Positions 3,030-30,622 of a stretch of 64,000 nt of DNA are shown here, piece after piece. Source of the stretch: an uncultured Candidatus Rokubacteria bacterium. Lineage in GTDB: Bacteria; Methylomirabilota; Methylomirabilia; Rokubacteriales; DASRDR01. The DNA lies in contig CAWDVE010000012.1 of assembly GCA_963805625.1 (NCBI GenBank), forward strand, positions 64,001 through 128,000, in the 5' to 3' direction. The notes under the pieces are model-generated. The model saw only the letters and a list, made by a program, of their open reading frames with translations. It was not told the DNA's origin and ran no database searches. The position numbers were made by a program, and so were the translations under genes. Each line of letters begins with the position of its first letter. Position 1 is the stretch's first letter.

Positions 3030-5480
3030 GTGCCCGCCCGCGCGCCTCCGGCTCCCCTCCCCGCTGGTCGCGTGGGCACCCTTCGCCGGAAACGTCCACC
3101 ACGACTGGCTCCGCTCCCCGACGGTCGGCCGGGCCCGCGTCCGAGGCTTCACGCGAACCGGGTGGGGCCGGCGCTTCGCCCGATCCTGACTCGCGACGCC
3201 GGGTCACCGCCTACCTCCGCCCCGCCTCCGACCCCTGGTGGCTCGGACCGCGAGGTCGCCGCCCCGGTTCTCGGTCTCCCGCGCCGTCGGCGCGGAGGGG
3301 CGCGGGCCGAGGCGACGGCGCTCCTCGCCCTCTACGGGTTGCTCCTCGTCGTCCCGTCGGCCAACTACCACCTCTTCGACGGCCTGCCTGCGAGCCGCGT
3401 GCCCGAATTCCTCGGGCTCGCCCTGCTCATCCCTTTGGTCGTCAGCCGGGCCCTCCGCCGCCTGTACGGCCGGCTCGTCGGCGGGTGGCCGGTGACGCGA
3501 CGTGCCCTCTTGGCGCTCGGCGCGGTCGCCCTCGCGGCGAAGGTCGTCCTGCTCGCCTCGGGGACTCATGCGGGCTTCCTGGCTTGCTACCGTTCGCCCA
3601 TCGCCGCGCCGCCCGCCGGACCCTGCGAGAAGTCATACGAGAACCCGTTCTCCCGCTTCGGCGTCACGCGGATCGACCGGCGTCTCGACTTCATCCCGGC
3701 CAACTGGGACCTGTCCTTCATCAACTCGCTGCGGTTCAACATCTATCACTGGGTCGCGGGCAACGTCGTCCGGGATCGTCTCCCCCTGGCCGCGACCTGG
3801 ACCGGGACGGTCGCGCGCTCGCGCGCCTGGACGGCCGAGGTACGCTACGTCGGCGCCGCCACCGTCCAGGTCGACTCGATGGAGCCGACGAGGCTCCGCC
3901 CCCGCTACGACACGCTGGCCGTCGCCCACGTGCCCATCCCCGCCGGCCGCCATCGCCTCGTCGTCACCTACGAGTTCGACGACGGCTCCCGAGTCGGCGA
4001 CGGGCACACGCGGGGCCCCTACGCCACCATTCGGCTGGCCCGGCTGAGCGAAGCGCCGGGCCCGGCGATGCCGGTGAGGCCGGTGCGACCGCCGCGGGCG
4101 TGGCGGTGGACCGGCGCGGCGGTCGACGCGGTCGTCGTCCTCCTCGCGGCGACGGTGGCCGGGGCGTGCGCCGTCGCTATGGCCCGCGAGGCGTGGATCC
4201 CGGCCGTCGTCGCGGTCGCGGCGGCCGGCAGCCACCTCTGGGACGGACGGCTGCCCGTCGTTCCGTCGCACTCGTGGTTCTTCCTCCTGCTCGCGCTCCT
4301 TTTCGCGCATCTCGCCCTGGGCGTCCGCCCGCAGCGGCTGCTGGGCGCCTACCTCGGCATCCTTGCGGCAGCCTTCTTCCTGGCGTGGCGGCGACTCGGC
4401 CGGTTGAACGTCGTCCAGTACCGGGCGGCCGGCGATGACTGGCTGACGTACGAGTCCTTCGCGCGGTCCATCCTCGAGACCTGGTCGCTCCGGGGCGCCG
4501 AGGACGTCTTCTACTACCAGCCACTCTTCCGCTACGTCCGCTTCGCCGAGCATTTCGTGCTGGGGGACGGCGATCCGTTCCTCCTGACGTGGGCGGTCGT
4601 GACGCTCACGTGGAGCCTATTCTGGCTCGGCGCGGTCGCGATCGGGCGGCGGCGCGCGTCGTTCCGGACCATCGTCCTCACCTTCGCCGGTCTGCTGCTG
4701 GTGCTGCTGGCGACCTCCCCGACGGTCCTCGACCTGGTGCACGCGGGAGTCTCCGAGTATCCAACCTGGATCGCGCTGCCCTTCTTACTGCCGATGCTCT
4801 TCGTGTCGTCCTCGACGAGGGCCTGGCTGCTGGGGGCGACCCTGCTGGGCCTCTCGCTCCTGACGAGAACGAACCAACTGCCGGCCGTCCTGGCGACGCT
4901 CGGGCTTTTCCTGTGGCGGGGCTGGCGGATCCGACCCCGCGCGGCCATCGCGGCCGGGCTCATGTTCGGCGCTGTCGCGCTGCTTCCCACGCTTCACAAC
5001 TACTACTACGGCGGTCGCCTGGTGCCGCTGACGACCAGCGCCGGGATCCCGGCGAATCTCGTGCTCCCGCCCGTGCGGTTGCTCGACGTCGCCCGCGACG
5101 CGGAGGTGCGGACGCGGCTCCGGACGCAGGTCGAGCGGATGCTGTACGTCGGTGGGTCCGACCGCGTCTTCGGGATGGCGGTCCGCGGGCTGCAGGTGCT
5201 GTGGGTGGTCACGGTCGGGGCGTGGGCGGTGACTGGCCGTGCGAGCTTGCCCCTCGCGCTACTGGTGGGCCTCCCCGTCTGCTACCTCGTTCCCCACGTC
5301 TTCTACCAAGCGACGCACGGCTATCCGCGGCACTTCCTCATTGGCTACCTCGCCATGGGGGCGGTCGTCCTCCTGGCCGAAGCGGGCTCGCGAGGCATTG
5401 CCCGGTCCGCGGCTCCGGCGATCGAATCGACGCCGCGAGAAGCGCCCATCATCCGGACGAGTCGGGGACCAATGGGCTGA
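3030..5480 (+). CDS. Large polytopic membrane protein, GT-C-like (start uncertain, probably downstream near 3250-3320)
   Basis: Many hydrophobic helices, a periplasmic loop, and a GDDWLTYESFARSIL motif resembling the GT-C acidic loop. Confidence 0.6.
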   Translation: MPARAPPAPLPAGRVGTLRRKRPPRLAPLPDGRPGPRPRLHANRVGPALRPILTRDAGSPPTSAPPPTPGGSDREVAAPVLGLPRRRRGGARAEATALLALYGLLLVVPSANYHLFDGLPASRVPEFLGLALLIPLVVSRALRRLYGRLVGGWPVTRRALLALGAVALAAKVVLLASGTHAGFLACYRSPIAAPPAGPCEKSYENPFSRFGVTRIDRRLDFIPANWDLSFINSLRFNIYHWVAGNVVRDRLPLAATWTGTVARSRAWTAEVRYVGAATVQVDSMEPTRLRPRYDTLAVAHVPIPAGRHRLVVTYEFDDGSRVGDGHTRGPYATIRLARLSEAPGPAMPVRPVRPPRAWRWTGAAVDAVVVLLAATVAGACAVAMAREAWIPAVVAVAAAGSHLWDGRLPVVPSHSWFFLLLALLFAHLALGVRPQRLLGAYLGILAAAFFLAWRRLGRLNVVQYRAAGDDWLTYESFARSILETWSLRGAEDVFYYQPLFRYVRFAEHFVLGDGDPFLLTWAVVTLTWSLFWLGAVAIGRRRASFRTIVLTFAGLLLVLLATSPTVLDLVHAGVSEYPTWIALPFLLPMLFVSSSTRAWLLGATLLGLSLLTRTNQLPAVLATLGLFLWRGWRIRPRAAIAAGLMFGAVALLPTLHNYYYGGRLVPLTTSAGIPANLVLPPVRLLDVARDAEVRTRLRTQVERMLYVGGSDRVFGMAVRGLQVLWVVTVGAWAVTGRASLPLALLVGLPVCYLVPHVFYQATHGYPRHFLIGYLAMGAVVLLAEAGSRGIARSAAPAIESTPREAPIIRTSRGPMG

Positions 5481-7452
5481 CCAGTCGTGCGAAGTAGGCG
5501 CTTTTCTCGACGACGTCCGCGTAGGACCCCGCCGCGGTGACCATGCCGTCTTCGAGGACGATGATCTGATCGCAACCGGCGATGGCGGAGGCCCGGTGCG
5601 TCACGGCGACGACGGTCCGCGGCTGATCGCGTCGGAGGGCCGCCCTGATCACCGTGGCCTCCCCATACGGATCCAGGGCGGAGGTCGCCTCGTCCAGGAC
5701 GAGGAGGCTGGGGTCGGAGTAGAGCGCCCGCGCCACGGCCAACCGCTGCCGCTGGCCGCCGCTCAGCGCCGACCCTCGCTCACCGAGCTGCGTGTGGAGC
5801 CCGCGCGGGAGCTGTTGGACCAGCTCCCAGAGCCCGACCTCCTCGAGCACGTGCTCGACACGGTCCTCGTCGATCGCGTCGGCGAAGAGCACGACGTTCC
5901 GGAGGATCGAGTCGTTGAAGATGTAGGGCTCCTGGGACACGACCCCGACGCCAGCCTGCCAGCCAGGTTCGAGTCCGCCCAGCGGCCGGCCGTCCAGTAG
6001 CACCTCGCCCGAAGTCGGCTCGAGCAATCCGACCAGGAGATCGACGAACGTGCTCTTCCCGGCACCGCTCGGCCCGACGATCCCCACGAAGCTGCCGGCC
6101 TCGATTCGGACCGTCACGTCACGCAGGGCCGGACGCTTCGACTCCTCGTACCAGGACGACACGCGCCAGAACTCGATGGCGACGTTCAGCACGGGAGGCC
6201 TCTTCGCCGGGCCGGTGCCGCCAGTGTATCGAGGACCGGCGGCGCCTCGAACGGGGACGTCCTGCAGCACCTGGTCGACGAACGGGAGACCGGCGCGAAC
6301 ATTCGCGAGATTGGTCGCGCTCCGGCCCGCCAGGGGCAACAGCCGGACGAGCGCGTACGCGAAGAGTCCGAGCATCGTCAGGACACGAGGCGTGTCGTAT
6401 TCCAGGCCGATCGTGAAGATGATGAGACTCGCGACTAGTATCATCGTGACACCCTCGATCACGATGCGCGGCAGGTCGACGAGGATCGCCCGATAACGGT
6501 TGGCGGCGGCCACCTTGGCGCGCTCCTCCCGGTGGCTGGACACCACGGGCGCCTCATGGTGGCGGAGGGTGATCTCGCGGCGTCCCTGCAGGACCTGATC
6601 CACGAACAGGTTCGCCGAGCGATCGTGCCGCTCGATGAGCGCGGTCGCTTCGTGGAGACGCGGGTTGACCGCCCTGACCAGCACGACGATCACGCCGGCC
6701 ACGAACGCCGCGGCGGCCAGCGTCCCCCACGGCGAGGCCACCACCATGACCGAGAGGATCGATGCGATGACGGCCGCGTCCGTAAGGAACTGGACGCCGG
6801 GCCGGAACACCTGCCACGCGACGAGCGTGGCGAGCTGCGAGACCCGCCGCTGGAGGTCCGCGACGCGGCGCTGCCTGAACCTGGCATACGGCATGCTCAC
6901 GTAGGCCCAGAGGAGGGCTTCGCCGATGACGATACCGGTCTCGACCGTCGCCGAGGAGGCGGCCGCCGTCAGCGCGAGAGTCAGGGCGGCCCGGAGCAGG
7001 AAGACGGCGACGACCACGGCCGTCACCAGAGCGGCCGTCGACGCCCCCACGAGGAGGAGCGGCGCTTCCGTCGCCCACGGCAGCAACGCCCGGGAGCCGG
7101 ACCCGGCCGACTGCGTCGCCAGCCGGATCACGTTGAGGAAGAGCGCGGTCGTGGCCAGCTCCGCCAGGGAGCAGAGACCGGTGAGGACCATCAGAAGAAC
7201 CCATCGGCGACGGACACGGCGGGGCAGCAGCCTGTAGATGGCCCGCGCCCGCGCCCACACCGACGCGGACGTGACCGGATCGCCCGCGTCCACCCGTGGC
7301 ATCACGATCGGCGGCGCGACGCTCGACCGCTCAGGGAGCGCGCCGGGACACGACCCCACGAATGGCTCGTCGTGGGCGGCCCCATACTTTCGGTGCCCGC
7401 CGTCGGACCTCGGCCTCGAGGCCGCCCGGACATCGATGGCGGCCCGATCCAC
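5449..7452 (-). CDS. ABC exporter, fused permease/ATPase (alternative start 7302)
   Basis: TM domain, Walker A GPSGAGKST, signature LSGGQRQR, Walker B LLVLDEATSALD. Confidence 0.93.
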   Translation of the reverse strand: MDRAAIDVRAASRPRSDGGHRKYGAAHDEPFVGSCPGALPERSSVAPPIVMPRVDAGDPVTSASVWARARAIYRLLPRRVRRRWVLLMVLTGLCSLAELATTALFLNVIRLATQSAGSGSRALLPWATEAPLLLVGASTAALVTAVVVAVFLLRAALTLALTAAASSATVETGIVIGEALLWAYVSMPYARFRQRRVADLQRRVSQLATLVAWQVFRPGVQFLTDAAVIASILSVMVVASPWGTLAAAAFVAGVIVVLVRAVNPRLHEATALIERHDRSANLFVDQVLQGRREITLRHHEAPVVSSHREERAKVAAANRYRAILVDLPRIVIEGVTMILVASLIIFTIGLEYDTPRVLTMLGLFAYALVRLLPLAGRSATNLANVRAGLPFVDQVLQDVPVRGAAGPRYTGGTGPAKRPPVLNVAIEFWRVSSWYEESKRPALRDVTVRIEAGSFVGIVGPSGAGKSTFVDLLVGLLEPTSGEVLLDGRPLGGLEPGWQAGVGVVSQEPYIFNDSILRNVVLFADAIDEDRVEHVLEEVGLWELVQQLPRGLHTQLGERGSALSGGQRQRLAVARALYSDPSLLVLDEATSALDPYGEATVIRAALRRDQPRTVVAVTHRASAIAGCDQIIVLEDGMVTAAGSYADVVEKSAYFARLVSPLVPDSSG

Positions 7453-7537
7453 GATCCACGCCGGCGCCCAGGAGCGCCGATGGGCCCGCTTTGGGCGTGG
7501 GCATCACCGGGTCGATGGCCTCGGCACGGCGGCGGGT

Positions 7538-8728
7538 TCAGTGATGATGGTGCTCGTACGCCCCCGCGGCGAGCCGGAAGAGGCGAAGGGGGTAGTGGAG
7601 GAATGACAGCGCGCGCGGCAGTCTCCGCGCTGCCCAGTCCTCGACCGTGAGGGTCGTCATCGCCAGCCAGCAGTACCGGACCCGATGGCGCCACCGCTCC
7701 CGGACGCGGAGCTGGAATCGGGCCTGCTCGAGGAGGCCGGAGGGGCGGCCGTCGTCCCGAAACAGCCGCGCCCGGACCGCGGCTGCCAGCGTAGGGACGA
7801 CGGCGTCCACCTCCGCCCGCCGCCGCACCGGCCCGGGCATCGGGGCGCCGAGCAGGTCCGCGGCCACTCGGAGCCCCAGCGCGAGCATCCGCTCGCTGGC
7901 AGCTTGCCGGGCCTCCGCCACCATTCGCGCCCAGTCGAGGCCGGGCCGGGCCCGCGTCAGCTCGGCGATGTCGCAGATCCAGATCAGGCGCTCCCACATG
8001 TGCTTGGCTCCGTGCTCGCAGAGGCTCGGCAGGAGGACCTCGGGCGCTAGCGTCGTGACGGTGGTGCCGGCAATCGTGACCGGCTCGAGCCGCTCCCAGA
8101 GTCGCTTGGGCTCGAGGAGCAGCGAGACGTGCCGCGGCGAGATCTCCCAGTGCAGCTCCACCATGGCCGATCGGTCGGGGCGCACCAGCGAGTAGGCGTG
8201 CTGGGACTCGACCAGCGCCTGCTCCTGGCTCTGGCTGAGCGCCACGTTCGGACGGAAGCCCTCGGCGACCAGGACGTCCTTCGCGCGTAGCACCTCCTGC
8301 TTGTTCACCAGGATGTCGAGATCGGAGAAGTCCCGGAGGCCGACGTGGCCGTAGGCCGTCATGGCCAGGGCCGGGCCGCGGTAGGGGATGGCCGGGATGC
8401 CCTCAGCGGTGAAGCGTTTCAGGATGGAGCAGAGCTGAAGGGCCAGGAAGAGGTTGCGGCGCTGGGTCTTCTCGAAGCTTTCCCTGAGGCGCTCGGGCAC
8501 CCCGGCGGGGAGCAGGCCGGGCTCCACCCCCTTGAGGTGCCAATGCACCAGTGGCAGCACCCCGTGCCATCGGGCCGTTCGGAGGATGTACTCCCAGTCG
8601 AGCTCCCGGTCGAGAAGCCCACGGAGGCGCTCGGCCGTCGGCGGGTCCATCCGCGTGCGCGCGCAGGCCAGCAGGAGCTCGCCCTCGGGACGGGAGCTGG
8701 TGGGTCCCGCCGGGGTGCCGGGTGACAC
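7538..8728 (-). CDS. Nucleotidyltransferase family protein (NTP_transf_5 type, commonly lasso-cluster associated)
   Basis: LDWEYILRTARWHGVLPL, YRGPALA..AYG..GLRDFSDLDILV, VELHW, HGAKHMWERLIWICDIA. Confidence 0.85.
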   Translation of the reverse strand: MSPGTPAGPTSSRPEGELLLACARTRMDPPTAERLRGLLDRELDWEYILRTARWHGVLPLVHWHLKGVEPGLLPAGVPERLRESFEKTQRRNLFLALQLCSILKRFTAEGIPAIPYRGPALAMTAYGHVGLRDFSDLDILVNKQEVLRAKDVLVAEGFRPNVALSQSQEQALVESQHAYSLVRPDRSAMVELHWEISPRHVSLLLEPKRLWERLEPVTIAGTTVTTLAPEVLLPSLCEHGAKHMWERLIWICDIAELTRARPGLDWARMVAEARQAASERMLALGLRVAADLLGAPMPGPVRRRAEVDAVVPTLAAAVRARLFRDDGRPSGLLEQARFQLRVRERWRHRVRYCWLAMTTLTVEDWAARRLPRALSFLHYPLRLFRLAAGAYEHHHH

Positions 8729-8964
8729 TATGGATTTCAGCCCTGAGCGCTCGCCTGGGTTTCGCGGTGGGTTGAACGACGAGCCCGGGTCGTCACCCCA
8801 GAATCCTACATCAGGGCGTCAGCCTGACCAAGACGCCGCCCATGTGTCGAGCCATCGCAGGGAGAGGCTGAGGTTCCTGGCCCCATTGCCGAGGACACCT
8901 CGACGCCGGGGTCCGGGTCCATCTGCCACCGAGGCACGAGAAAGGGGCGCCCAGAAAGTTCTTC

Positions 8965-8995
8965 TTGACACCCTCCGCGGTTCCACGCTAAAGGT
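8965..8995 (+). promoter_or_regulatory. Possible sigma70 promoter for the RRE/precursor operon
   Basis: Perfect TTGACA at 8965-8970; the -10 candidate TAAAGG 18 bp later is imperfect. Confidence 0.35.
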
Positions 8996-9017
8996 ATCTT
9001 CCAGCGTGAGGGAACTC

Positions 9018-9293
9018 ATGTCCAATGCGTTCGTCGCAGCAAGGGGGTTGGAAACGACCCCCCTTGAGGAAGGCGCCGTCCTGTTCCATCCAAAGCTCGG
9101 CAAGTTCGTCATGCTCAATCGATCGGCGGCCTTCCTTTGGAGCGAACTGGCGACGCCCAAGACGGAGGAGGAGCTGGCCCGTCGCTTCGCGGCCAACTTC
9201 ACCGATGCGGCGCCGGAGACGTCTCGGCAGGACGTGCGTGAGGCCCTGGCCAAGCTGCGGGAGTTGGAGCTCGTCTCCCCGGCTGAGGCCTAA
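9018..9293 (+). CDS. PqqD-family RiPP recognition element (RRE, lasso B1-like)
   Basis: 91 aa with RBS GAGGGA. LEEGAVLFHPKLGKFVMLNRSAAFLWSELATPKTEEELARRFAANF..RQDVREALAKLRELELV matches the PqqD winged-helix pattern. Confidence 0.9.
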   Translation: MSNAFVAARGLETTPLEEGAVLFHPKLGKFVMLNRSAAFLWSELATPKTEEELARRFAANFTDAAPETSRQDVREALAKLRELELVSPAEA

Positions 9294-9319
9294 CACAACC
9301 AACCCGGGGAGGCCAACAG

Positions 9320-9466
9320 ATGGATCAGCAGGCGACGGCGCGGTACGAGCGGCCCTCGATCACAGTGATGGACGAAGAGGAGCTGCTGAAGGTCTTCCAG
9401 ATGACGGCAGCGGAGATCAGCGTGGCGTCCTGCTGGTGGAACGCCTGCCCGACCGGTTGCCCGTAA
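9320..9466 (+). CDS. Putative RiPP precursor peptide, 48 aa: MDQQATARYERPSITVMDEEELLKVFQMTAAEISVASCWWNACPTGCP
   Basis: Translated by hand (below the ORF track cutoff). Strong RBS GGGGAGG at 9306-9312, YxxPx(I/L) RRE-binding leader motif, Cys/Trp-rich C-terminus, directly after the RRE gene. Confidence 0.88.
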   Translation: MDQQATARYERPSITVMDEEELLKVFQMTAAEISVASCWWNACPTGCP

Positions 9467-9492
9467 CGCCCACATCCTCGATCGTTCGAGCT

Positions 9493-9531
9493 CACGGCCT
9501 CGGTGCTCCGGCAACGGACGCCGAGGCCGTG
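9493..9531 (+). terminator. Stem-loop after the precursor gene (attenuator or mRNA stabiliser)
   Basis: cacggcctcggtg-c-tccg-GCAA-cgga-cgccgaggccgtg: long stem with one G-U pair and a GNRA tetraloop; weak U tract. Confidence 0.7.
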
Positions 9532-9601
9532 TGTTGATGAGCGCCTTCTTGCGAATCCTGGGCGTCGCGGCCTGCGACTGACGCGAAGCGGGGGACAAGG
9601 A

Positions 9602-10420
9602 ATGGGAGCAGCGGCTCAGTACGCCACGAAGGTCGTACGTGGAGTGACTCTCCGTGCGGACCCGGCCCGCGAGGCCTGCTTCAAGGTCGTGAACGACGCC
9701 ACCGATCTGGCGGACTATGCGGACATGTCGCCGGTGGCCCGGCGTCAGCGGCTCCACAAGCACATGCACAACGAGATGCAGAGTCTCGAGATGGCGGCGC
9801 AGTCCGTGGCCGACTTCCCCGACGCGCCGTGGGACGTCAGGATGGGGCTGGCCCGCCAGTGCTGGGACGAGACCCGGCACTCTCAAATCCTCCACCGGCG
9901 GCTCCGGGAGGTCGGGGGCTACAAGGGCGAGTTCCCGGTGATGAACTTCGAGTGGAGCATCACCTGCATGATGGACTCTCTCTCCGCGCGGCTGGCCATC
10001 CAGAACCGCACGTTCGAGGGGGGGGAGATCGACCTCCTGCGGCATCTTGTCGGCGTGTGGCGGGAAGAGGGCGACAACGACACCGCCGATCTCCTCGACG
10101 GGATCCTCGTCGACGAGATCCAGCACGTCCGCCTGGCCAACGAGTGGTTCAAGCAGATGTCCCGGCAGGATCCGACGGTGCTGCTGAAGCTGGCCGCGGC
10201 CGTCAACTTCCTGAAGCGCGTCACCCAGGCGTTCCAGCCGGCTCCCGGCGAGGTGAATGCCGCCGGCGTGAACCTCACCGGCTTCGAGCATGTCGAGATG
10301 CTCTCGAACGTCGAGGACCGGCTCCGCGCGGGATTCACGGAGCGGGAGATCGCCCAGATCCAGCTTCAGGAGAGCCAGCTGCGGGCCTCTGCGGCAGCAG
10401 AGAAGACCGCCGTATCCTAG
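9602..10420 (+). CDS. Ferritin-like diiron protein (DUF455-like), copy 1
   Basis: HNEMQSLE..ARQCWDETRH..NRTFEGGEID..LVDEIQH: two ExxH motifs in a four-helix-bundle spacing; RBS upstream of ATG 9602. Confidence 0.82.
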   Translation: MGAAAQYATKVVRGVTLRADPAREACFKVVNDATDLADYADMSPVARRQRLHKHMHNEMQSLEMAAQSVADFPDAPWDVRMGLARQCWDETRHSQILHRRLREVGGYKGEFPVMNFEWSITCMMDSLSARLAIQNRTFEGGEIDLLRHLVGVWREEGDNDTADLLDGILVDEIQHVRLANEWFKQMSRQDPTVLLKLAAAVNFLKRVTQAFQPAPGEVNAAGVNLTGFEHVEMLSNVEDRLRAGFTEREIAQIQLQESQLRASAAAEKTAVS

Positions 10421-10437
10421 ATACGGCCGGCGACCGG

Positions 10438-11547
10438 GTGTCAACCGCCGTCGGACTCGGCCGGTGGAACGCGACGCTCGAGCGCGTCCTGGAGGCGCCG
10501 GAGCCGCGGCCCCGCCAGACTGAACCAGTCTGGTTCCGGTTCGGCGACGGGTTCTTGGAGGTCGTCTCCGACCACGAGCCGCTCCTCCGCGACCTCGAGG
10601 CCTTCTACGGGGACTGCGGGATCGCCGAGCCTCCCGCAGAGGGATGTCGGGTCCGCTGCACCGCGAGCCTGCTCCCCGGCGTCCCGTTGCTGTCCCTCTC
10701 GTTCAGCGGGCCACGCCAGCCCGATCTGATCGAGGTCGCGCGGAGCCCCTACCGGTTTCGCCGGCGCGAGCCGTACATCGAGGCTCCCGGCCCGGCGCCC
10801 GGCTGGCGCCTGCTGGTGAATCGCGATGCGGACGACCGCCTCCTCATCGCGACCAACGGCCGGGTGAGCTTGGTCAACCTCGACGAAGCGCCGGCCGAGT
10901 TCGTCGTCGACCTGGTCGTCTCCGCGGCCCAGAGTATCCAGACCGGGGTGCTGTTCCTCCACGCCGGCTCCGTGGGCGTCGGCGGAACGGGCGCCCTGAT
11001 CATCGCCCCGACCAACGGGGGCAAGTCGACGACCACCCTCGCCCTGGCGCGGCGCGGCCATGCCTTCCTCGGCGACGACGTGGCGGCGGTGCGGCTGGCC
11101 ACCCGCGAGCTGCTGCCGTTCCCGAGGTCGGCCGGGCTGCGGGAAGGATCCCTGGCCCGATCCCTGGAGGGGCAGGTGCAGGGGTGCCGCCACGTGCGCG
11201 CCACGAACCGTCACGGGATCGAGCGGGCCGTCGTGCGGGTCAGCGATCTCTTCCCCTGGTCGGTCAGCGGCCCGCTGCCCCTCCGGTTCGCGTTCGTCCT
11301 CGACGGGCTGGCGGAGAGCGCCGCGATCTCGGAGTTCCGGCCTGGGCTCGGCGAGCTGCCCCGGCTCCAGTCGACGGTGACCGACACGTCGACATCCTGG
11401 GGGCTCTCGCCCGGGCGTGACCTGATGCTGTTCCTCTCGGTGGTGAACCTTCTGTCCGGCCTGCGCTGCCATCTCGTGCAGCGCGGCTCCCCGGACGAGA
11501 CCGCACGCGTCATCGAAGCCGCCATCATGGAGGGAACATGTACCTGA
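10438..11547 (+). CDS. HPr-kinase-like P-loop kinase (lasso-cluster type)
   Basis: LFLHAGSV..GALIIAPTNGGKSTTTLALARRGHAFLGDD; GTG start inferred. Confidence 0.82.
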   Translation: MSTAVGLGRWNATLERVLEAPEPRPRQTEPVWFRFGDGFLEVVSDHEPLLRDLEAFYGDCGIAEPPAEGCRVRCTASLLPGVPLLSLSFSGPRQPDLIEVARSPYRFRRREPYIEAPGPAPGWRLLVNRDADDRLLIATNGRVSLVNLDEAPAEFVVDLVVSAAQSIQTGVLFLHAGSVGVGGTGALIIAPTNGGKSTTTLALARRGHAFLGDDVAAVRLATRELLPFPRSAGLREGSLARSLEGQVQGCRHVRATNRHGIERAVVRVSDLFPWSVSGPLPLRFAFVLDGLAESAAISEFRPGLGELPRLQSTVTDTSTSWGLSPGRDLMLFLSVVNLLSGLRCHLVQRGSPDETARVIEAAIMEGTCT

Positions 11548-12098
11548 ACGTGAAGGAGCGGGGCGACCACGTAGCCACCTTTCGCTGGATCGAGGTGCGC
11601 CTGATGGAGATGTTGGCCGCCTGGGTCCCCACCACGCCCGAGATGGAGGTGAAGCTCGTCTTCGGAGCCCACATCTGGGAGGCCGCGCAGCATGCGGACG
11701 CGCTGGGGAAGCGGACCCACGAGCTGCGGCTGCCCCTCCACGACAGCCTCGAGCCCGCCCGTGGGTACGTCGACTTGCTCACGGAAGTGGCCAGGACGAC
11801 CGACACCAGCAAGCGGATCGCCGCGTTCTACGATTGCCTGCTCCCGGGCCTCGAGCAGCGCTTCCGGCGTTACATCGAGCGGGTCGACACGCTCCTGGAC
11901 GGCCCCACCGTCCGGATCCTCGAGCGGATCATGGGCGACATGGCCCGCATGACGGCCGACTGTCGCGCCCTCCTAGAGGAGGTGCCGGCCGTCAAGCTCA
12001 AGGACCACAAGTGGCTCGATGCGCTGCGCCAGCGCGAGGCAGGTCTCGGTGACATCATCGTCCACCGGGTGTCGAGCCCGGCGGCGGTCCCGGCGTGA
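11538..12098 (+). CDS. Divergent ferritin-like protein (copy 2) lacking the second ExxH
   Basis: WIEVRLMEMLAAW..EVKLVFGAHIWEAAQHADALGKR resembles ferritin-like helices 1-2; overlaps both neighbouring genes. Confidence 0.65.
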   Translation: MYLNVKERGDHVATFRWIEVRLMEMLAAWVPTTPEMEVKLVFGAHIWEAAQHADALGKRTHELRLPLHDSLEPARGYVDLLTEVARTTDTSKRIAAFYDCLLPGLEQRFRRYIERVDTLLDGPTVRILERIMGDMARMTADCRALLEEVPAVKLKDHKWLDALRQREAGLGDIIVHRVSSPAAVPA

Positions 12099-12808
12099 GC
12101 GTCATGGCCAGCATCGGCACGATCGTGGTGCGCGGTGGCGTCACTCTGCGAGCGAGCCCGGCTCGAGACTCCTGCTTCAGGATCGTCACCGACCAGGCCG
12201 ACATGGTGAAGCATCCCGACGGGTCGCTCGAAGCGCGTCGGGAGCAGCTGCACAGCGATGTGAACAACGAGCTCCAGAGCCTGGAGATCGCCGCCCAGTC
12301 GATCGTCGACTTTCCCGAAGCGCCCTGGGAGCTGCGCCTCGAACTGGCCCGCCAGTGCTGGGACGAGGTACGCCACGCCCGCCTGTTCCTCGGCCGGCTT
12401 CTCGCGCTCAAGGGATACCTGGGGGAGTTCCCCATCATCAACCAGGAGTGGGGCGTCGTCTGCATGTTCGACTCCCTCCCGGCGAGACTTGCGGTCCAGA
12501 ACCGGATCTTCGAGGGCCTGTCACTCGACGTCTTCAAGGAGAGCGTCGAGGTGTGGGCGGGCTGGGGCGATCCCGAGACGGCCGAGGTCATGGAAGGCGT
12601 CATGGTCGACGAGATCCGGCACGCGGCATTTGCCCAGGAGTGGCTTCGCCGCCTGGGAGCCGGTAACCCGGGCGTGACGCTCAAGGCCGTGGCGGCCATG
12701 AGCCAGCTGAAGACGATGAGCATCGCCTTGACCCCCGCCGGGCAGAAGATGGAGCACGAGATCCCGGTCAACACCGAGGACCGGCGTCACGCCGGGCTTC
12801 CCATCTGA
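12095..12808 (+). CDS. Ferritin-like diiron protein (DUF455-like), copy 3
   Basis: NNELQSLE..ARQCWDEVRH..NRIFEGLSLD..MVDEIRH; clear paralog of 9602-10420. Confidence 0.82.
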   Translation: MSVMASIGTIVVRGGVTLRASPARDSCFRIVTDQADMVKHPDGSLEARREQLHSDVNNELQSLEIAAQSIVDFPEAPWELRLELARQCWDEVRHARLFLGRLLALKGYLGEFPIINQEWGVVCMFDSLPARLAVQNRIFEGLSLDVFKESVEVWAGWGDPETAEVMEGVMVDEIRHAAFAQEWLRRLGAGNPGVTLKAVAAMSQLKTMSIALTPAGQKMEHEIPVNTEDRRHAGLPI

Positions 12809-12816
12809 GTTCGCCC

Positions 12817-13560
12817 ATGAGTACGCCTCAGGACGCCGCTCGCCCTCCGCTCGACCCGGCGCTGTTCGCCGATGGCCCGGCGCGCGATTCGCGGTTCGCG
12901 GTGAAGGACCGCTGGATTGAGATGGCCAACACCCCGGCCGACCATCCCCTTCATCAGATGGAATTCACGCATCGCCAGATGAACGAGGAGATCAACGGCC
13001 TCGAGTGCTCGGCGCGCGGCCTGAGCGACTTCCCGGACGCGGCCTGGGAGCTCCGGATGGCGCTGGCCAGGCAGTGCGTCGACGAGGCGCGCCACGTCAA
13101 GATGTTCCGGCGCCTCCTCGAGCGCCTCGGAGGGCACGTCGGGCAGTTCCCGGTGCTCAACTTCCAGTACCGCATCATCACGAAAGCGGACAGCCTGATC
13201 GGCCGGCTGACGATCCAGAATCGTACGTTCGAGGCTGGCGGGCTCGACGCCGTCTCCGCGGTGGTCGAGCAGATGCGGGCGAGGGGCGACGACGACCTCG
13301 AGCTGTTCTTCGACTCCCAGCTGGCCGACGAGATCCTCCACGTGCGCTTCGCCAACGAGTGGATTCGCCGGCTGATCCACGAAGACCCGCGAAACGTTCT
13401 CCGGATGGGGAGCGCGATGACGGCCGCGGCGAAGGCGTTCAAGCAGGTGATGGGAAGGGAAGGGACGGAAGGAGTCAGCTATCCCACCGACAGACAGGCT
13501 CGTTTGGAGGCGGGGTTCACCCCCAGTGAGGTCGAGATGGACGCGGGGTCCAAGGCCTAG
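12817..13560 (+). CDS. Ferritin-like diiron protein (DUF455-like), copy 4
   Basis: MNEEINGLE..ARQCVDEARH..NRTFEAGGLD..LADEILH. Confidence 0.82.
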   Translation: MSTPQDAARPPLDPALFADGPARDSRFAVKDRWIEMANTPADHPLHQMEFTHRQMNEEINGLECSARGLSDFPDAAWELRMALARQCVDEARHVKMFRRLLERLGGHVGQFPVLNFQYRIITKADSLIGRLTIQNRTFEAGGLDAVSAVVEQMRARGDDDLELFFDSQLADEILHVRFANEWIRRLIHEDPRNVLRMGSAMTAAAKAFKQVMGREGTEGVSYPTDRQARLEAGFTPSEVEMDAGSKA

Positions 13561-13594
13561 CCAACTCGGTCGACCCGGCGACACAGCCGTCCGA

Positions 13595-14200
13595 ATGACG
13601 AGGTCGCTCAGCGAGGCGGACACGGCGACGTCCCGTCCTGATCCGGTCCAGGCGGTCGCGGCTTTCTTCCGGGAGGATCCGGCGCGCATCCTCGCTGTCG
13701 CTTCGAGCCTCCGAGGCCCCGACCGCAGCATCGAGTCCACCGTCGAGGGTAAGAGCATGGGGCGGACGCTCCCGCCCGGCTCTCGGATCCGCATCGAGCT
13801 GGCCGATCGACCCGGTTACGAGGTCGGGGAGGTGGTCGCGTTCCTGGCCCGGGGCAAGGTCGTCGTGCACCGGGTGGTGCACAAGAGCCAGCGGGGTGCG
13901 GCTCGCGGCCGGCTCCTCACGCGGGGCGACGCCGCGCTGGTCCCCGACCCGGCGATCGACGTGGCGAGCGTCCTGGGCGCGGTGACCGCGATCGACCGTG
14001 ACGGAGGCTGGGTGCCGCCGGATGGACGGCCCCGCCGATCGCTCCCCGCTCGAGTCGTGGCCTCGCTCGCGCTGGCCATCGTCGCGCGCGTGCTGGAGGC
14101 GAGCCCTCGGGCCGCGGACGTCGTCGTGCGGCTGCTCCACCGAGGACGGCCGCTCCATGCGGCGTGCCTGCGTCACGGCGGGCGAGGGGTGGCACCATGA
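13595..14200 (+). CDS. S24/S26-family (signal-peptidase-like) serine peptidase
   Basis: VEGKSMGRTLPPGS (catalytic Ser), GEVVAF..VVVHRVV (His), LLTRGDA..PD. Confidence 0.78.
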   Translation: MTRSLSEADTATSRPDPVQAVAAFFREDPARILAVASSLRGPDRSIESTVEGKSMGRTLPPGSRIRIELADRPGYEVGEVVAFLARGKVVVHRVVHKSQRGAARGRLLTRGDAALVPDPAIDVASVLGAVTAIDRDGGWVPPDGRPRRSLPARVVASLALAIVARVLEASPRAADVVVRLLHRGRPLHAACLRHGGRGVAP

Positions 14201-14961
14201 AGCTGGTCGCCCAGACCTCGCAGTTCCACGTCTATGACGACGTCCTGCTGGAGAAGGATTTCCGCGCGGTTTGGAACTACGTCCAGCTCGAATCGTACGT
14301 GCCGGTACACCACGACGGCTGGGTGAAGGTCTGGCGCATCTCCGACGGCGTCCCGCTGGGCGCGTTGGCGACCGTGCTCTACGAGAGCCCCAAGCGTCCG
14401 GCCGGATCGGAGGACGCCAAGGGCACCCGCATCTATCCCACGCACACGGGGCTCGACCGGGTGCTGGAAGCCCTCAGGACCCATGCCGACCAGCTGGCCG
14501 ACCTCGTCGGCAAGTGGGGCGCCGATTTCGACAACGTGAGCGCTCGTGCGTTCCTCTATCCGCAGGGGACGGGGCTGTCCTGGCACGAGGACGCGGTCAA
14601 CTACACCGGCGGGTACGCCTTCTACGCGCATCCGGAATGGAACGTCCAGTGGGGCGGCGAGCTCCTCGTCGCCGACGAGTCCGCCAGGTCCCAGCATTTC
14701 GAGGACGACCGGCTCCCGGTTCTTACGCGCACGGAGGAGGGGCTCCGGCTCACCAAGGTGCGCATCCCGCCGTTCCTCGACAATGCGCGCCAGAATACCG
14801 TGCTCGCGCAGCGCGGCATGGGATGCTACATCACTCCGAAGCCCAACCGACTGGTCGTGATCGCTGCCGGGAACGCCCACATGATCAACCGGGTCCACCC
14901 GGCCGCCGGAGACCACGTCCGCTGCACGATCGCGGGCTTCTTCATCTCCTCCAAGGTTTGA
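14197..14961 (+). CDS. 2OG-Fe(II) oxygenase (prolyl-4-hydroxylase-like)
   Basis: LSWHED (HxD), YAHPEWNVQWGGEL, PKPNRLV..HMINRV..RCTIAGF. Confidence 0.85.
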   Translation: MKLVAQTSQFHVYDDVLLEKDFRAVWNYVQLESYVPVHHDGWVKVWRISDGVPLGALATVLYESPKRPAGSEDAKGTRIYPTHTGLDRVLEALRTHADQLADLVGKWGADFDNVSARAFLYPQGTGLSWHEDAVNYTGGYAFYAHPEWNVQWGGELLVADESARSQHFEDDRLPVLTRTEEGLRLTKVRIPPFLDNARQNTVLAQRGMGCYITPKPNRLVVIAAGNAHMINRVHPAAGDHVRCTIAGFFISSKV

Positions 14962-15017
14962 CCGCGAGCGGAAGCATGCGTCGGCCGCTGCCAAGGGCCG
15001 CCTGAGACCGTCGGCCC

Positions 15018-16721
15018 ATGCGGGGTGGCTTCGTCGTCTGCCTGAACGGAAACGGGCGCCTTCTCGACCAGGTCGTCGAGCACGTGCGCTGGCACCACGG
15101 CAAGGGCATCCGGGATCACCGCGATGGCCTGGAGATCGCCGCCCTCGTCGACGGCGCCGACGGCCCGGCCATCGAGATCGGAGCCGGCCGGACCGTCCTG
15201 GTCCATGGCGCCGCCCCGGCGCCCCTCGCCGAGCTCCAGCGCCGCGGGACGCGGTTCGCGGCGATCGAGTGGGACGGAGTGCGATTGCGCGCCAGCCGGG
15301 ATCCGATGGGCCTCGCCCCGCTGTTCTACCGGGCGTATCAGGGAGTCGTGTGGCTTGCCACGGAAGTGCAGCCCCTGGTCGCCCTGGGACGCGCGGCTCC
15401 GGACCTGGAAGCGCTCACGGCCAGGACCGCGTTCACCCCGATCGACGATCGGACGGGCTGGGAGGGCATCGGGCGCGTGCTCCCCGGGTCGACGCTCGAG
15501 TTCGGCCCCGATCGGCAAGTCTCCTCCGCCCGCTACTGGCAACCGGCCGAGGCCCTCGGTCGGTACCGGGGCAGTCGCGCCGAGGCGCTGGCGGAGTTCC
15601 GGGAGCGGTTCCGCACGGCGGTGGGGCGGTGCTACGAGCCCGGTGGCGGCATCCTGCTCAGCGGGGGTCTCGACTCGGCGGCGGTGGCCCTGACGGCGGC
15701 CGAGCAGGGGCAAACCCGCCCGCATCTGGTGCATGTCCACTTCCCCGACCTTCCCGAGACGCACGAGCAAGGATACGCCAGTGCGGTGGCGGCCGCCGTT
15801 GGCGCTCCGCTCCACGTCGTCCCCGGGCAGGTCGACCCCTGGGACGTGGACCCCGAGCTCGACGGCTGGGGAGGGATCGCTTACAGCTGGGTGCCCTACG
15901 GCATGGAGGACCCCGCCCTGGCCCACATGGCGGCCTCGGGTGTCACGGTGGCGCTGGACGGCCACGATGGAGATGGCGCCCTCGGTCCCCTCGGCTCCAA
16001 CTGGGGCGACATGATCCTGAAGGGGGAGCTTCGCCAAGTCGCCGCGCTGGCCGTGCGCCATGGCGCGTGGGCGCTCGTCCGCGGGGTCGCCGTCGATTTC
16101 CTTCCGCCGTACGCCTGGTTACGCCGGCTGGCCGGCCGCCCTCCCCGAGCAACCTACATGCAGTCGGTCGCTCACTACTTTCGCGGGCCCCTCCGCGACC
16201 GCAGCCTCGCGGCCGACATCGAGCGGTGGACGTGGCCGTCGAGGCGCTGGGGGGTGCGGCAGCTCCAGCCGCTGCTTCCGCGTGCGACGATCTCCTTCGA
16301 GCAGAAGGAGCTCGAGGCGGCTCGCCACGGCCTCGACATGCGCCATCCCTTTGCCGACCGTGAGCTGGTCGAGTTCCTCATCTCGCTCCCGTCGGCCGTG
16401 AAGAGCGATCCGATGCGTCCCAAGGCGATCCTCGTGGACAGCCTGAGCGACCTGCTTCCCAAGGCCGTCCAGCAGCGCCCAAAAAGCGACTACATGGCCG
16501 CCGTCCGACAGCGGGTGGACCCGGCCGCCTGCATCGAGAGGATCCGGGCCTCGGGCGTTCGCCTGCCGGGCATCGAGTACGGACGACTCCTGGACGACGC
16601 CCGGCTCGATCCCAACGGGCTGCCGCTGTTCTTCCTCGTCAATCTCACCCGGATCCACGCGTTCGCCCAGCGGGCCCTCGAAGCGGCCGGCGGCTCCGGG
16701 AAGGGGGCGCCCCATGTCTGA
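15018..16721 (+). CDS. Asparagine-synthetase-like ATP-dependent enzyme of lasso-cyclase type (no N-terminal catalytic Cys)
   Basis: RDPMGLAPLFY, ILLSGGLDSAAV (PP-loop), LDGHDGD, MRHPFADRELVEFLISLP; N-terminus is MRGGF rather than MCGI. Confidence 0.85.
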   Translation: MRGGFVVCLNGNGRLLDQVVEHVRWHHGKGIRDHRDGLEIAALVDGADGPAIEIGAGRTVLVHGAAPAPLAELQRRGTRFAAIEWDGVRLRASRDPMGLAPLFYRAYQGVVWLATEVQPLVALGRAAPDLEALTARTAFTPIDDRTGWEGIGRVLPGSTLEFGPDRQVSSARYWQPAEALGRYRGSRAEALAEFRERFRTAVGRCYEPGGGILLSGGLDSAAVALTAAEQGQTRPHLVHVHFPDLPETHEQGYASAVAAAVGAPLHVVPGQVDPWDVDPELDGWGGIAYSWVPYGMEDPALAHMAASGVTVALDGHDGDGALGPLGSNWGDMILKGELRQVAALAVRHGAWALVRGVAVDFLPPYAWLRRLAGRPPRATYMQSVAHYFRGPLRDRSLAADIERWTWPSRRWGVRQLQPLLPRATISFEQKELEAARHGLDMRHPFADRELVEFLISLPSAVKSDPMRPKAILVDSLSDLLPKAVQQRPKSDYMAAVRQRVDPAACIERIRASGVRLPGIEYGRLLDDARLDPNGLPLFFLVNLTRIHAFAQRALEAAGGSGKGAPHV

Positions 16722-17475
16722 CGCCGCGGCGGGGACGGGTTCGGCCGCGTCCGCGCTCGCGCGGGACGGCTTCGCCGGTCCGTTCCCGCTCGGGACCCCG
16801 GCCCAGATGAGCGTCGTGGCCCTCCAGCTGTTCAAGTCGGTGTTCACCCGGCCGGGACCCTTCGCCGACGACCCCTTCCTCGATCGCCACCTCGATTCGC
16901 CGCTGGTCGCCCACCTGGCCACGCATCCCGCGATCCTCGCCCGGGTCGAGCCGCTCCTGGGCGGCGACCTCGTCGCCTGGCGATCGATCTTCTTCGCCAA
17001 GGGCCCGACGAGCCGGGAAGTGCCGTGGCATCAGGACGGCCACTTCTGGAACCTCGATCCGCCGATCACGCTCACCGCGTGGCTCGCGATCGACCGCGCC
17101 CACGGCGCCGATCACTGCATGGAGGTCGTGCCCGGCTCCCACCGGACGGCGCTTCCGCACGTCCCGTCGGCTCCGGGATCCCAGTTCCCGGAGAGCACCG
17201 CCCCCGGGTCCTTCGACCTCTCCCGAGCGATCGAGCTGCCGGTGGATGCCGGGATGTTCGTCCTGTTCGACCAGCGCCTCGTGCACCGTTCGAAGGGAGG
17301 CGGCCAGGCGCGGCGCCTCGCCCTTTCGGTGAGGATCGCCCCCGCGCACGTCCGGATCCCCCCCCACTTGCTGCCTCCGGGTGGCCGCGTGCTGCCTTTT
17401 GGGTGGAGGTCCCTCGCCGAGTCACCCCTCGAGGCCTCCCGGTCCGCCTCGTCCGACCCGCGCCGCGCCTCGTGA
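16714..17475 (+). CDS. Phytanoyl-CoA dioxygenase (PhyH) family Fe/2OG enzyme
   Basis: FFAKGP..VPWHQD..W, TAWLAID..CMEVVPGSH, LVHRS..RRLALSVR. Confidence 0.87.
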   Translation: MSDAAAGTGSAASALARDGFAGPFPLGTPAQMSVVALQLFKSVFTRPGPFADDPFLDRHLDSPLVAHLATHPAILARVEPLLGGDLVAWRSIFFAKGPTSREVPWHQDGHFWNLDPPITLTAWLAIDRAHGADHCMEVVPGSHRTALPHVPSAPGSQFPESTAPGSFDLSRAIELPVDAGMFVLFDQRLVHRSKGGGQARRLALSVRIAPAHVRIPPHLLPPGGRVLPFGWRSLAESPLEASRSASSDPRRAS

Positions 17476-18341
17476 CGCGCCCCGGCGACGCCAGCCCGGC
17501 CGACGCCGCCATGCGGGAGGCGCGCGAGCAGTCCTGGTTCCACACGATCAATCTTCCCGACGGCAGCAGCACGCGCGGTGTCTTCGACAACCGGGGCGTG
17601 GCCCGGCTGGTGCAGTGGCCGGCCGGCCTGCCCGGCGGCCGGTGTCTCGACGTCGGGACGTGTGACGGCTTCTGGGCCTTCGAGATGGAGCGCCGCGGCG
17701 CCGCCGAGGTCACCGCGATCGACGTGGACGACCCCGCCCACCTCGACTGGTCGTGGGAGTCCCGCCGCAACCCAGACGCCACGCAGGCATGGCGGGCGCG
17801 TCGGGGCCACCGCTTCGACATCGCCCGCCGCGCTCTGGGGTCGCGGGTGAACCGGGTGGCCTGCTCCGTCTACGATCTCGACCCGTCCGTCCACGGCCGG
17901 TTCGACGTGGTCTTCTGCGGGACCCTGCTGGTGCATCTCCGGGACCCGGTCCGGGCGCTCGAGCGCATGCGCGAGGTCTGCGCGGGCGAGCTCGTTCTCG
18001 TCGAGTGCATCGACGCGGTCCTGGACGTGGTCGCCTGGCGGGTGCCTTGCGCCCGATTCACCCCGGCGGCCGAGCAGTGGTGGCGGCTCAATCGGGCCGG
18101 GCTCCTCCGCATGCTGCGGGTCGCCGGCTTCGACGTGCTGTGGGCGAGCCGCCGGTTTCACACGCCGTTCGGGCCGAGCGTGCTGCTTCACCCGTCCCGG
18201 CGGTTCGGGCCGCTCCGCGCCGGCCGGGCGGCGGTGGCCCAGGTGCTGCGGGCGTTCCCGAGCGCCCCGGTCCTGGCCGATGCCGCCGGGCTGGCGCTGG
18301 GCACGTACGACGTCGCCGTCCGCGCCCGGCCCCGACCGTGA
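17472..18341 (+). CDS. Class I SAM-dependent methyltransferase
   Basis: WFHTINLPDG..T.G, CLDVGTCDGFWAFEMERRGA, FDVVFCGTLLVHLRDP; overlaps the previous stop (GTGA). Confidence 0.85.
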   Translation: MTRPGDASPADAAMREAREQSWFHTINLPDGSSTRGVFDNRGVARLVQWPAGLPGGRCLDVGTCDGFWAFEMERRGAAEVTAIDVDDPAHLDWSWESRRNPDATQAWRARRGHRFDIARRALGSRVNRVACSVYDLDPSVHGRFDVVFCGTLLVHLRDPVRALERMREVCAGELVLVECIDAVLDVVAWRVPCARFTPAAEQWWRLNRAGLLRMLRVAGFDVLWASRRFHTPFGPSVLLHPSRRFGPLRAGRAAVAQVLRAFPSAPVLADAAGLALGTYDVAVRARPRP

Positions 18342-30345: not shown

Positions 30346-30622
30346 TAGAGCTGAAGGCCACTGGCGACCTGCTTCGCGGTGACGATCGGACCGTGCTGGG
30401 TGAGCAGGCGGATATCCGCGCCGAGGCGGAGCCGTGACGTCACGCCCGCCGCCACGTTCCGCTCTTGCTCGTGACGTGCTCTCGAGTTGCGCGACGCGCT
30501 GACCACGGTGCGCCGCGGCCCCCCGCACCGGCCGGCCGGGGAGCCGCCCAGGACGAGCGCGCGGGACGTGCGCTGACCAGGGCGTGCTCGCGGCCCCTGC
30601 GTTCTCTCGGGTCTGTCACCCG

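Follow-up and report, generated by a model that had tools for sequence, protein, structure and literature searches.

Linear polyphosphorylated peptides (LPP), the products of lppA-K-B-S-D-N clusters, are described from Bacillota in the available text of PMC13381572. There the peptidase LppS (S29, H68, D93) was shown experimentally to remove a YxxP leader after the sequence FET, in dependence on an RRE, the recognition element of peptides that are made by the ribosome and modified after translation (RiPPs) (Popov et al. 2026, PMC13381572, available text). Lasso clusters of the paeninodin/pseudomycoidin type likewise combine an RRE, a kinase, a nucleotidyltransferase, an Asn-synthetase homologue and an ABC exporter (available text of PMC9266682). 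Here we examine a locus with all these functions at positions 5449 to 18341 of a 64-kb window, by which we mean the whole stretch of 64,000 nucleotides analysed (positions 64,001 to 128,000 of contig CAWDVE010000012.1 from an uncultured Candidatus Rokubacteria bacterium; the genome is called G000, C12, C13 and C16 are its contigs, and L-numbers denote individual loci). The locus joins a 48-aa precursor peptide to ferritin-like proteins of the DUF455 family, and we judge it to be a real and conserved RiPP pathway, not described in the literature searched, whose scaffold is LPP-like and whose new enzyme family can be put to the test.

With the LPP clusters, as far as the available text describes them, the locus shares a stand-alone RRE, a YxxP leader, a SipW-type Ser/His/Asp peptidase, an HprK-like kinase, an NTP transferase, an MsbA-like exporter, an F-x-(x)-T motif ahead of the core and a position among polysaccharide genes. 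All four of RRE, HprK kinase, NTP transferase and MsbA-like exporter are present in the window. The RRE (9018..9293, +, 91 aa, PqqD family) matches PF05402 at E 4e-15, with TbiB1 (5v1u, E 0.002) as closest PDB sequence. The HprK-like kinase (10438..11547, +, start inferred) gave an HprK PDB match at E 0.002, and its P-loop Lys196 was kept in 30/30 homologues. The LppN/PsmN-like nucleotidyltransferase (7538..8728, -) matches PF14907 at E 3e-60, and the MsbA-like exporter (5449..7452, -, given as ORF limits, the real start being probably further in) carries ABC_tran (E 3e-31) and a weak ABC_membrane match.

The peptidase gene (13595..14200, +, alternative start 13526) encodes a soluble S26 protein of the SipW/SEC11 type, the predicted leader peptidase. 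Ser54, His92, Asp112 and Asp118 were found in 66/66 homologues and the protein matched the NCBIfam archaeal signal peptidase I (E 3e-9) and a SEC11A profile (E 1e-5); the spacing of its Ser/His/Asp residues agrees with S29/H68/D93 of LppS. As the preliminary description had noted, no transglutaminase-like B2 protease (PF13471) occurs in the window, the only match of the genome lying on contig C16 in a separate lasso cassette. Since the S24/S26 protein stands in for the absent B2, as with LppS, the scaffold is LPP-like, and the former term 'lasso-like scaffold' has to be given up: this locus, with its signal-peptidase-type leader protease, is closer to the LPP pathway than to lasso clusters. 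The cassette on C16 (L113:5092-8327, -, corresponding to G000:C16 at about 413-416 kb) is of canonical lasso type (RRE, B2, cyclase) and is followed by an ORF in which a lasso-leader-like N-terminus (YxxPxL...T) is fused to a Peptidase_S74 chaperone domain; a similar ORF apparently comes next.

There are also differences from LPP, as far as the available text goes. LPP cores are variable and phosphorylation is their primary modification, whereas here Trp-Trp (WW) and DUF455 are constant and the kinase is optional; kinase-less loci thus argue against Ser polyphosphorylation as a class-defining step in this family. Of the LPP leader consensus YxxPxVLxHQxIxFETxxS only YxxP is shared; the FQx[T/S] motif lies four residues further from the Tyr, and there is no Ser at +3. 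DUF455 has 0 occurrences in the text and six supplements of the LPP paper (PMC13381572).

Precursor family and gene linkage

The ORF list, the sequence and family scans bear out the packed operon first proposed: twelve genes were found with the expected coordinates, order and strands, namely (all on the plus strand) RRE, 48-aa peptide, Fer1, HprK-like kinase, Fer2, Fer3, Fer4, S24/S26 peptidase, 2OG oxygenase, Asn-synthetase-like protein, PhyH and methyltransferase, while the genes for the nucleotidyltransferase and the ABC exporter run divergently on the minus strand. Overlaps of 4-10 nt occur at four gene junctions. PqqD, DUF455 (three times), Asn_synthase, NTP_transf_5, PhyH, ABC_tran and Methyltransf scored above their Pfam cut-offs. 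Most of the domains singled out earlier for a check by hidden Markov model (HMM) are thereby confirmed, the exception being Peptidase_S24, which stayed below (E 0.023), as did Hpr_kinase_C (E 2e-5) and the 2OG oxygenase (E 5e-5).

The precursor gene (9320..9466, +, peptide P0001) is preceded by a Shine-Dalgarno-like GGGAGG and encodes YxxP at residues 9-12, FQxT at 26-29, Cys38-Trp39-Trp40, Cys43 and Cys47. A single-sequence search with the peptide matched 44/44 candidates, and of 444 candidates examined with a profile of 27 diverse members, 417 proteins reached E <= 0.01 (120 of them listed). Residues were counted in 144 listed precursors with Cys-Trp-Trp (CWW), a sample skewed to the best-scoring matches: F, Q, A-A, I-S, A and C-W-W were invariant and the tail variable, Tyr and Pro of YxxP were each present in 143/144, and Cys stood directly before WW in 144/144. 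A second subfamily carries Thr, Met, Val, Ser or Tyr in place of this Cys and has a shorter spacer. Such Cys-less precursors were found at seven loci (L089, L091, L102, L118, L131-L133), each with two DUF455 enzymes; fatty-acid hydroxylase/desaturase neighbours occur at L091 and L102, and glutamine-dependent Asn synthases at L091, L102 and L118. Common to both subfamilies are only the YxxP region, Gln27 and Trp-Trp, which makes WW the sole shared core motif. Hence the core, first called Cys/Trp-rich, keeps its invariant Trp pair, while Cys is not shared. After WW the tail may be as short as 2 or longer than 20 residues, and tails rich in Cys show patterns within subfamilies. Over 30 loci the conserved block had 1103/609/2405 pairwise differences at codon positions 1/2/3; because changes concentrate at third positions, the variation is of coding type. 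The 48-aa peptide is a member of a real gene family. A lipoprotein reading, based on a lipobox-like motif ahead of Cys38, was rejected: the leader is acidic and has no hydrophobic stretch.

The linkage was examined from both sides. An alignment of Fer4 gave eight named genome loci and the best 80 of 371 metagenome matches, 88 loci in all, most on short contigs; the named loci belong to Pseudomonadota (including the cultured Ramlibacter monticola KACC 19175), Acidobacteriota and Actinomycetota. By HMMs partly built from these same loci, precursor, RRE, Fer2 and S26 were all found in 25/25 loci that extend 4.5 kb or more upstream of Fer4. The kinase was present in 20/25 of them and DUF455 genes were never missing; S26 occurred in 56/57 loci with sufficient downstream DNA. 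Thus syntenic clusters with a co-conserved precursor, for which the preliminary description had recommended a search, do exist, and the gene linkage supports a peptide pathway that depends on an RRE and centres on DUF455 enzymes, not a lasso pathway. Starting from the peptide, sweeps of 251 + 401 + 401 genomes returned nine matches, spread over eight additional genomes. All eight that carry WW adjoin DUF455 genes; the ninth, a leader only, has neither WW nor a DUF455 neighbour. In one of these genomes (G222) the contig ends after the kinase, its locus being a near-match of L024. Within the window's own phylum the cluster peptide was found in 3/251 genomes, a patchy distribution as expected for specialised metabolism. 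The cluster is conserved in soil bacteria of several phyla. Two loci deserve mention: at L088:1815-4075 S26 and Fer2 are each apparently in two pieces (possibly a rearrangement or assembly error), and at L081:4293-6309 no S26 was seen within 2.1 kb 3' of Fer4.

DUF455 proteins and their ligand-less partner

Fer1 (9602..10420, +, E 5e-28), Fer3 (12095..12808, +, E 2e-24) and Fer4 (12817..13560, +, E 1e-24) match PF04305 at 87-99 bits against a cut-off of 34.3. Each has a complete diiron ligand set of four carboxylates and two His (4C/2H): Glu63, Glu90-x-x-His93, Glu139 and Glu172-x-x-His175 were kept in 89/89 homologues of Fer4 and in 85-86/86 of Fer1/3. The position four residues ahead of the second ExxH Glu, which we take to be the third-His site of AurF/CmlI-type N-oxygenases, is Gln or Ile/Val in these DUF455 proteins, but an invariant His52 is also present. 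N-oxygenases have a 3H/4C ligand set (available text of PMC13108848), from which the 4C/2H set of the DUF455 proteins in the cluster apparently differs. The best fold match of the Fer4 model (pLDDT 80.9) was an aldehyde-deformylating-oxygenase-like protein (Z 11.4, rmsd 4.6, 170 aligned); the modelled fold moderately supports membership of the ferritin-like diiron superfamily and would not by itself indicate the reaction. A sequence search for a solved DUF455 relative found none (best E 0.034, unrelated).

Fer2 (11538..12098, +, 186 aa) is different. It has no PF04305 match, the second ExxH is absent and no ExxH pair is conserved, and its model (pLDDT 94.9) is a ferritin-like bundle. The longest among its tied top fold matches was the toluene/o-xylene monooxygenase subunit 1t0q_B (Z 15.1, rmsd 3.2, 176 aligned, VIA-align), 2inn_C being also among the longest; both are beta subunits of arene monooxygenases. 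As the Fer2 and Fer1 profiles do not align significantly (probability 0.9%), the kinship of Fer2 rests on the fold and on fusions: a DUF455 match was found in 24/43 Fer2 homologues tested with Pfam (21 above cut-off), picked mostly for length from 150 listed. Fer2 thus looks like a metal-free structural, beta-like subunit, as predicted from its model. Of the 'four ferritin-like diiron proteins' first announced, Fer1, Fer3 and Fer4 hold with full ligands and Fer2, with neither PF04305 match nor ligand set, does not; likewise, 'up to six non-heme iron enzymes' come down to five.

A quick maximum-likelihood tree separated lone, Fer4, Fer1, Fer3 and Cys-less clades, with the Cys-less enzyme compatible with a Fer1- or Fer3-like placement. 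The Fer1 clade is represented in 32/32 CWW loci and in 0/7 Cys-less loci, and the Fer3 position is empty in 9/32 CWW loci, Fer3 being optional in the family; at least two ligand-complete DUF455 paralogues were present in each of these 39 loci (32 CWW and 7 Cys-less). DUF455 plus Fer2 is a general two-part module, of which one branch was recruited to the WW peptide. Lone pairs are conserved in this bacterial order (L104:7664-9028, corresponding to G000:C13 at about 270.7-272.0 kb, and L105-L111); their neighbours, read by eye, are biotin carboxylase/carrier, dinB and isc genes, with no peptide nearby. Fer4 matches occur in 53/61 genomes of relatives, outside G000 only at E of at least 1e-29 and of the lone type (this tally includes the unpublished genomes G038 and G055, on which no other claim rests). 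A plasmid collection gave five distant DUF455 matches only, the best one without a peptide cassette.

Proposed pathway and alternative readings

The analysis shows which genes make up the set and how they are linked, which motifs and which residues of ligand sets and triad are conserved, and which folds are predicted; we regard the cluster as very probably a RiPP pathway. In the scheme that we infer for the reactions, the Fer complex and the cleavage site, the RRE would bind the YxxP leader of the precursor. A multi-subunit DUF455 diiron oxidase, composed of Fer1 and Fer4, optionally Fer3, and the ligand-less Fer2 as structural subunit, would then use O2 to oxygenate the indole rings of Trp39-Trp40. 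After oxidation the SipW-like peptidase would cut off the leader, by analogy with LppS after FET, probably near FQxT (residues 26-29); the -3,-1 rule of signal peptidases would also allow cleavage behind Ala36 or Ser37. Unmodified, the core would have a monoisotopic mass of 2065.87 if it began at residue 29, 1964.82 at 30, 1323.48 at 37 and 1236.45 at 38. Kinase, nucleotidyltransferase, Fe/2OG enzymes and methyltransferase may decorate Ser/Thr or the new hydroxyls, the Asn-synthetase-like enzyme may activate the C-terminal carboxylate for amidation or cyclisation, and export of the product would fall to the ABC protein. Action of the DUF455 proteins on WW is probable; that they oxygenate the pair specifically is a tentative assignment, to which we give slightly less than an even chance. 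Nearly as probable as action on WW is that a new RiPP class is at hand, with a class-defining step carried out on Trp-Trp by a hetero-oligomeric ferritin-like diiron enzyme (DUF455 alpha/alpha'/beta).

Several points weigh against this pathway. Monooxygenation requires two external electrons, and no ferredoxin, reductase or effector gene was found in the cluster or recurring among 105 neighbour ORFs. The fold matches are helical bundles of many functions, and with Foldseek neither Fer4 nor Fer2 had a match at E <= 0.001. Lone DUF455 and Fer2-like pairs, in this genome and in relatives, lacked RRE, precursor and S26 in 8/8 loci checked; ferritin-like sets without an RRE or precursor, which the preliminary description had named as contrary evidence, therefore exist, and the module is not peptide-specific, while these distant pairs form a separate clade. 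The Tyr-to-Phe spacing is 17 residues here against 13 in LPP (available text of PMC13381572). Finally, locus counts include near-duplicates and kin, so that independence is overstated, and the precursor residue counts share the skew already mentioned. As regards a redox partner, a Rieske-domain protein of 589 aa is encoded about 19 kb upstream of the precursor (L114:384-2153, -, corresponding to G000:C12:52386-54152), with homologues 42-51% identical near L090 and L045; it was not assigned, homologues being near only 2/97 loci.

The same pathway could operate with a different chemistry, the DUF455 complex forming oxidative cross-links (Trp-Trp, or Cys38 sulfur to indole) and so a small macrocycle. 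The constant Cys ahead of WW in the listed CWW proteins would suit this, as would the restriction of the Fer1 clade to CWW loci (possibly one event) and the protein heading the Foldseek list in the DUF455 model search, R2lox, which we take to form radical cross-links. That match is weak (E 0.008), however, two DUF455 enzymes are kept beside Cys-less precursors, and the O-methyltransferases, kinases and sulfotransferases frequent among neighbour ORFs suit new hydroxyls better. We favour oxygenation because of the 4C/2H ligands, the beta-like partner, the two catalytic paralogues for two Trp and the hydroxyl-using tailoring neighbours, and consider cross-linking rather unlikely.

It is less probable still that the peptide serves as a scaffold only and that, in the manner of PQQ, a small molecule is cut out of it, an oxidised bis-indole or quinone used as cofactor, pigment or chelator. 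A tail of such variable length after WW would be in keeping with its being discarded, and the YxxP motif also occurs in PQQ precursors (available text of PMC13381572). Yet the cluster has one peptidase only, of leader-peptidase type, no cofactor-using dehydrogenase recurs among the neighbours, and the patterning of Cys-rich tails suggests that they are retained.

To a similarly small degree the locus might be an LPP-type phosphopeptide cluster in which the DUF455 set is merely co-located and serves another substrate, either a surface glycan or a small molecule. Each of the five LPP core functions is represented, peptide-free DUF455 sets exist, and the cluster is set among glycosyltransferase genes, as are LPP loci (available text of PMC13381572). 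But it is the kinase that is absent in 5/25 loci, and DUF455 in none; the DUF455 genes are interleaved and translationally coupled with precursor, kinase and peptidase; the LPP text and supplements contain no DUF455; and the invariance of WW would be left to explain.

The Asn-synthetase-like protein (15018..16721, +, PF00733 E 2e-29), an accessory ATP-dependent amide ligase by its sequence, has the ATP-binding SGGLDS motif and lacks the N-terminal glutaminase Cys (absent in 14/14 close orthologues). It scored 92 bits against a cut-off of 525 with the lasso cyclase model NF033535 and 72 against 300 with NF033561. Asp/Glu at core position 7-9 was found in 0/144 precursors in 13 of 16 registers and, as Glu, in 60/144 in three (starts 24-26), these without a penultimate Thr, so that no register combines the two and the earlier judgement of a core 'not lasso-compatible' stands. 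A lasso peptide, with the leader cleaved at residues 23-25 and the ring then closed by this enzyme at Glu32, is thus highly improbable: as in lasso clusters there are an RRE, a YxxP leader and a homologue of the cyclase, cores from residues 24-26 fit the usual Tyr-16 register and L022 has an above-cut-off lasso cyclase beside its RRE, but B2 is lacking from the cluster, residue 32 is Gln or Lys instead of Glu in 84/144 listed precursors (Gln at L100 despite an Asn orthologue 72% identical), the cyclase score is far too low and 3/16 long loci have no Asn-like gene. At L022:3064-6646 that cyclase and a second kinase lie directly upstream of RRE and WW precursor, with no space for B2 between. C-terminal amidation and nitrile formation are described for Asn-synthetase-like enzymes (available text of PMC13060819), and by this analogy the C-terminus would be a likelier target than Glu32.

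Close orthologues of the remaining genes were sought in 16 long loci, with 9 for the Asn-like protein, 4 for the methyltransferase, 3 for PhyH, 1 for the 2OG oxygenase and 9 for the ABC exporter; the nucleotidyltransferase is present in at least 13/16 (11 by blastp, plus L020 and L023 by Pfam). The Asn-synthetase-like protein, the 2OG-Fe(II) oxygenase (14197..14961, +), PhyH (16714..17475, +, PF05721 E 2e-22) and the SAM-dependent methyltransferase (17511..18341, +, Pfam match) are therefore optional tailoring functions. Retention of HxD distinguishes hydroxylases from halogenases; PhyH keeps the motif, and a role as halogenase was rejected. A MauG/MbnH-like di-haem gene (18469-20523, -) converges on the operon and was rejected as a member (1/16 long loci); weak homologues occur in three loci only, L028, L032 and L095.

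Directly 3' of the precursor stop an RNA hairpin is predicted (9492..9532, +, z -2.56; z < -2 in 10/32 homologous loci), possibly a stabiliser or attenuator. No sigma-70 promoter and no intrinsic terminator were found within 8600-9700. The RRE-precursor stretch is also covered by contigs of four RNA libraries, which come from four studies; contigs of this kind cannot show transcription or its level and were not counted as evidence. Transposase genes at 1563-2742, 25179-26393 and 29632-30348 (DDE_3 twice, ISAzo13-type) flank the cluster, and together with the glycosyltransferase-rich region around it suggest a mobile island. Further along the window, at 59145-63283 (+), four tandem genes encode ABC substrate-binding proteins (PF04392), one possibly split.

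Significance and relation to known oxidative systems

The statement that no characterised RiPP pathway uses DUF455-type enzymes holds for the literature searched, in which we found no DUF455 or ferritin-like RiPP enzyme, most subscription papers, MIBiG and bioRxiv supplements lying outside it. Neither ferritin nor DUF455 was returned by a term search of the available text of PMC11002830, PMC12710340 and PMC12452194. If the proposal is true, this would be the first case in that literature of a ferritin-like diiron oxidase with a ribosomal precursor as substrate, and the first DUF455 function; nature would offer hundreds of variants of the precursor in different phyla. The DUF455 family is widespread, and the papers searched assign it no reaction; its pairing with a genetically encoded candidate substrate makes function directly testable, and since a cultured host exists, R. 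monticola KACC 19175 (L020, NZ_JAEQNE010000002.1 at about 829.9-839.3 kb), so is the cluster. Non-haem iron enzymes acting on peptides (MNIO, HExxH) have been a repeated source of new chemistry, and site-selective oxidation or cross-linking of Trp would be useful for peptide engineering. The range of the SpI-type leader peptidase, whose first description (2026) was from Bacillota, would also extend to other phyla and to an oxidative pathway. The scaffold is already known and the chemistry is inferred; a confirmed mass shift would mean a new RiPP class.

Multicomponent arene oxygenases (toluene/phenol monooxygenase alpha/beta, PaaA/PaaC, with subunit roles as we understand them) resemble the DUF455 set in combining ligand-complete subunits with a ligand-less ferritin-fold partner, in the 4C/2H ligands and in the fold matches; for the Fer proteins an alpha/beta association is predicted from gene adjacency and fusions. 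They differ in an identity of 8-16% to the cluster proteins and in the reductase/effector genes, absent here, where a peptide is the predicted substrate.

Paeninodin/pseudomycoidin-type lasso clusters differ from the present one in the B2 protease and the conserved core Asp/Glu at 7-9, both missing here, and in the cyclase, whose homologue here is optional and far below cut-off (available text of PMC9266682). When every protein of the cluster was scanned with Pfam and NCBIfam, no match to DUF692 (PF05114), the MNIO family, appeared. As far as the available text of PMC12452194 and PMC13060819 goes, MNIO RiPPs (methanobactin, bufferins, nitrilobacillins) nevertheless work on the same principle, in that a precursor is oxidised by a non-haem multi-iron oxidase together with a partner protein, and the nitrilobacillin pathway adds an Asn-synthetase-like enzyme working on the C-terminus, comparable to the Asn-like gene of the cluster. 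The enzymes themselves belong to unrelated families: the present cluster uses the DUF455 ferritin-like bundle, and its target is apparently Trp-Trp as against Cys, Asp or Phe (PMC12452194, PMC13060819, available text).

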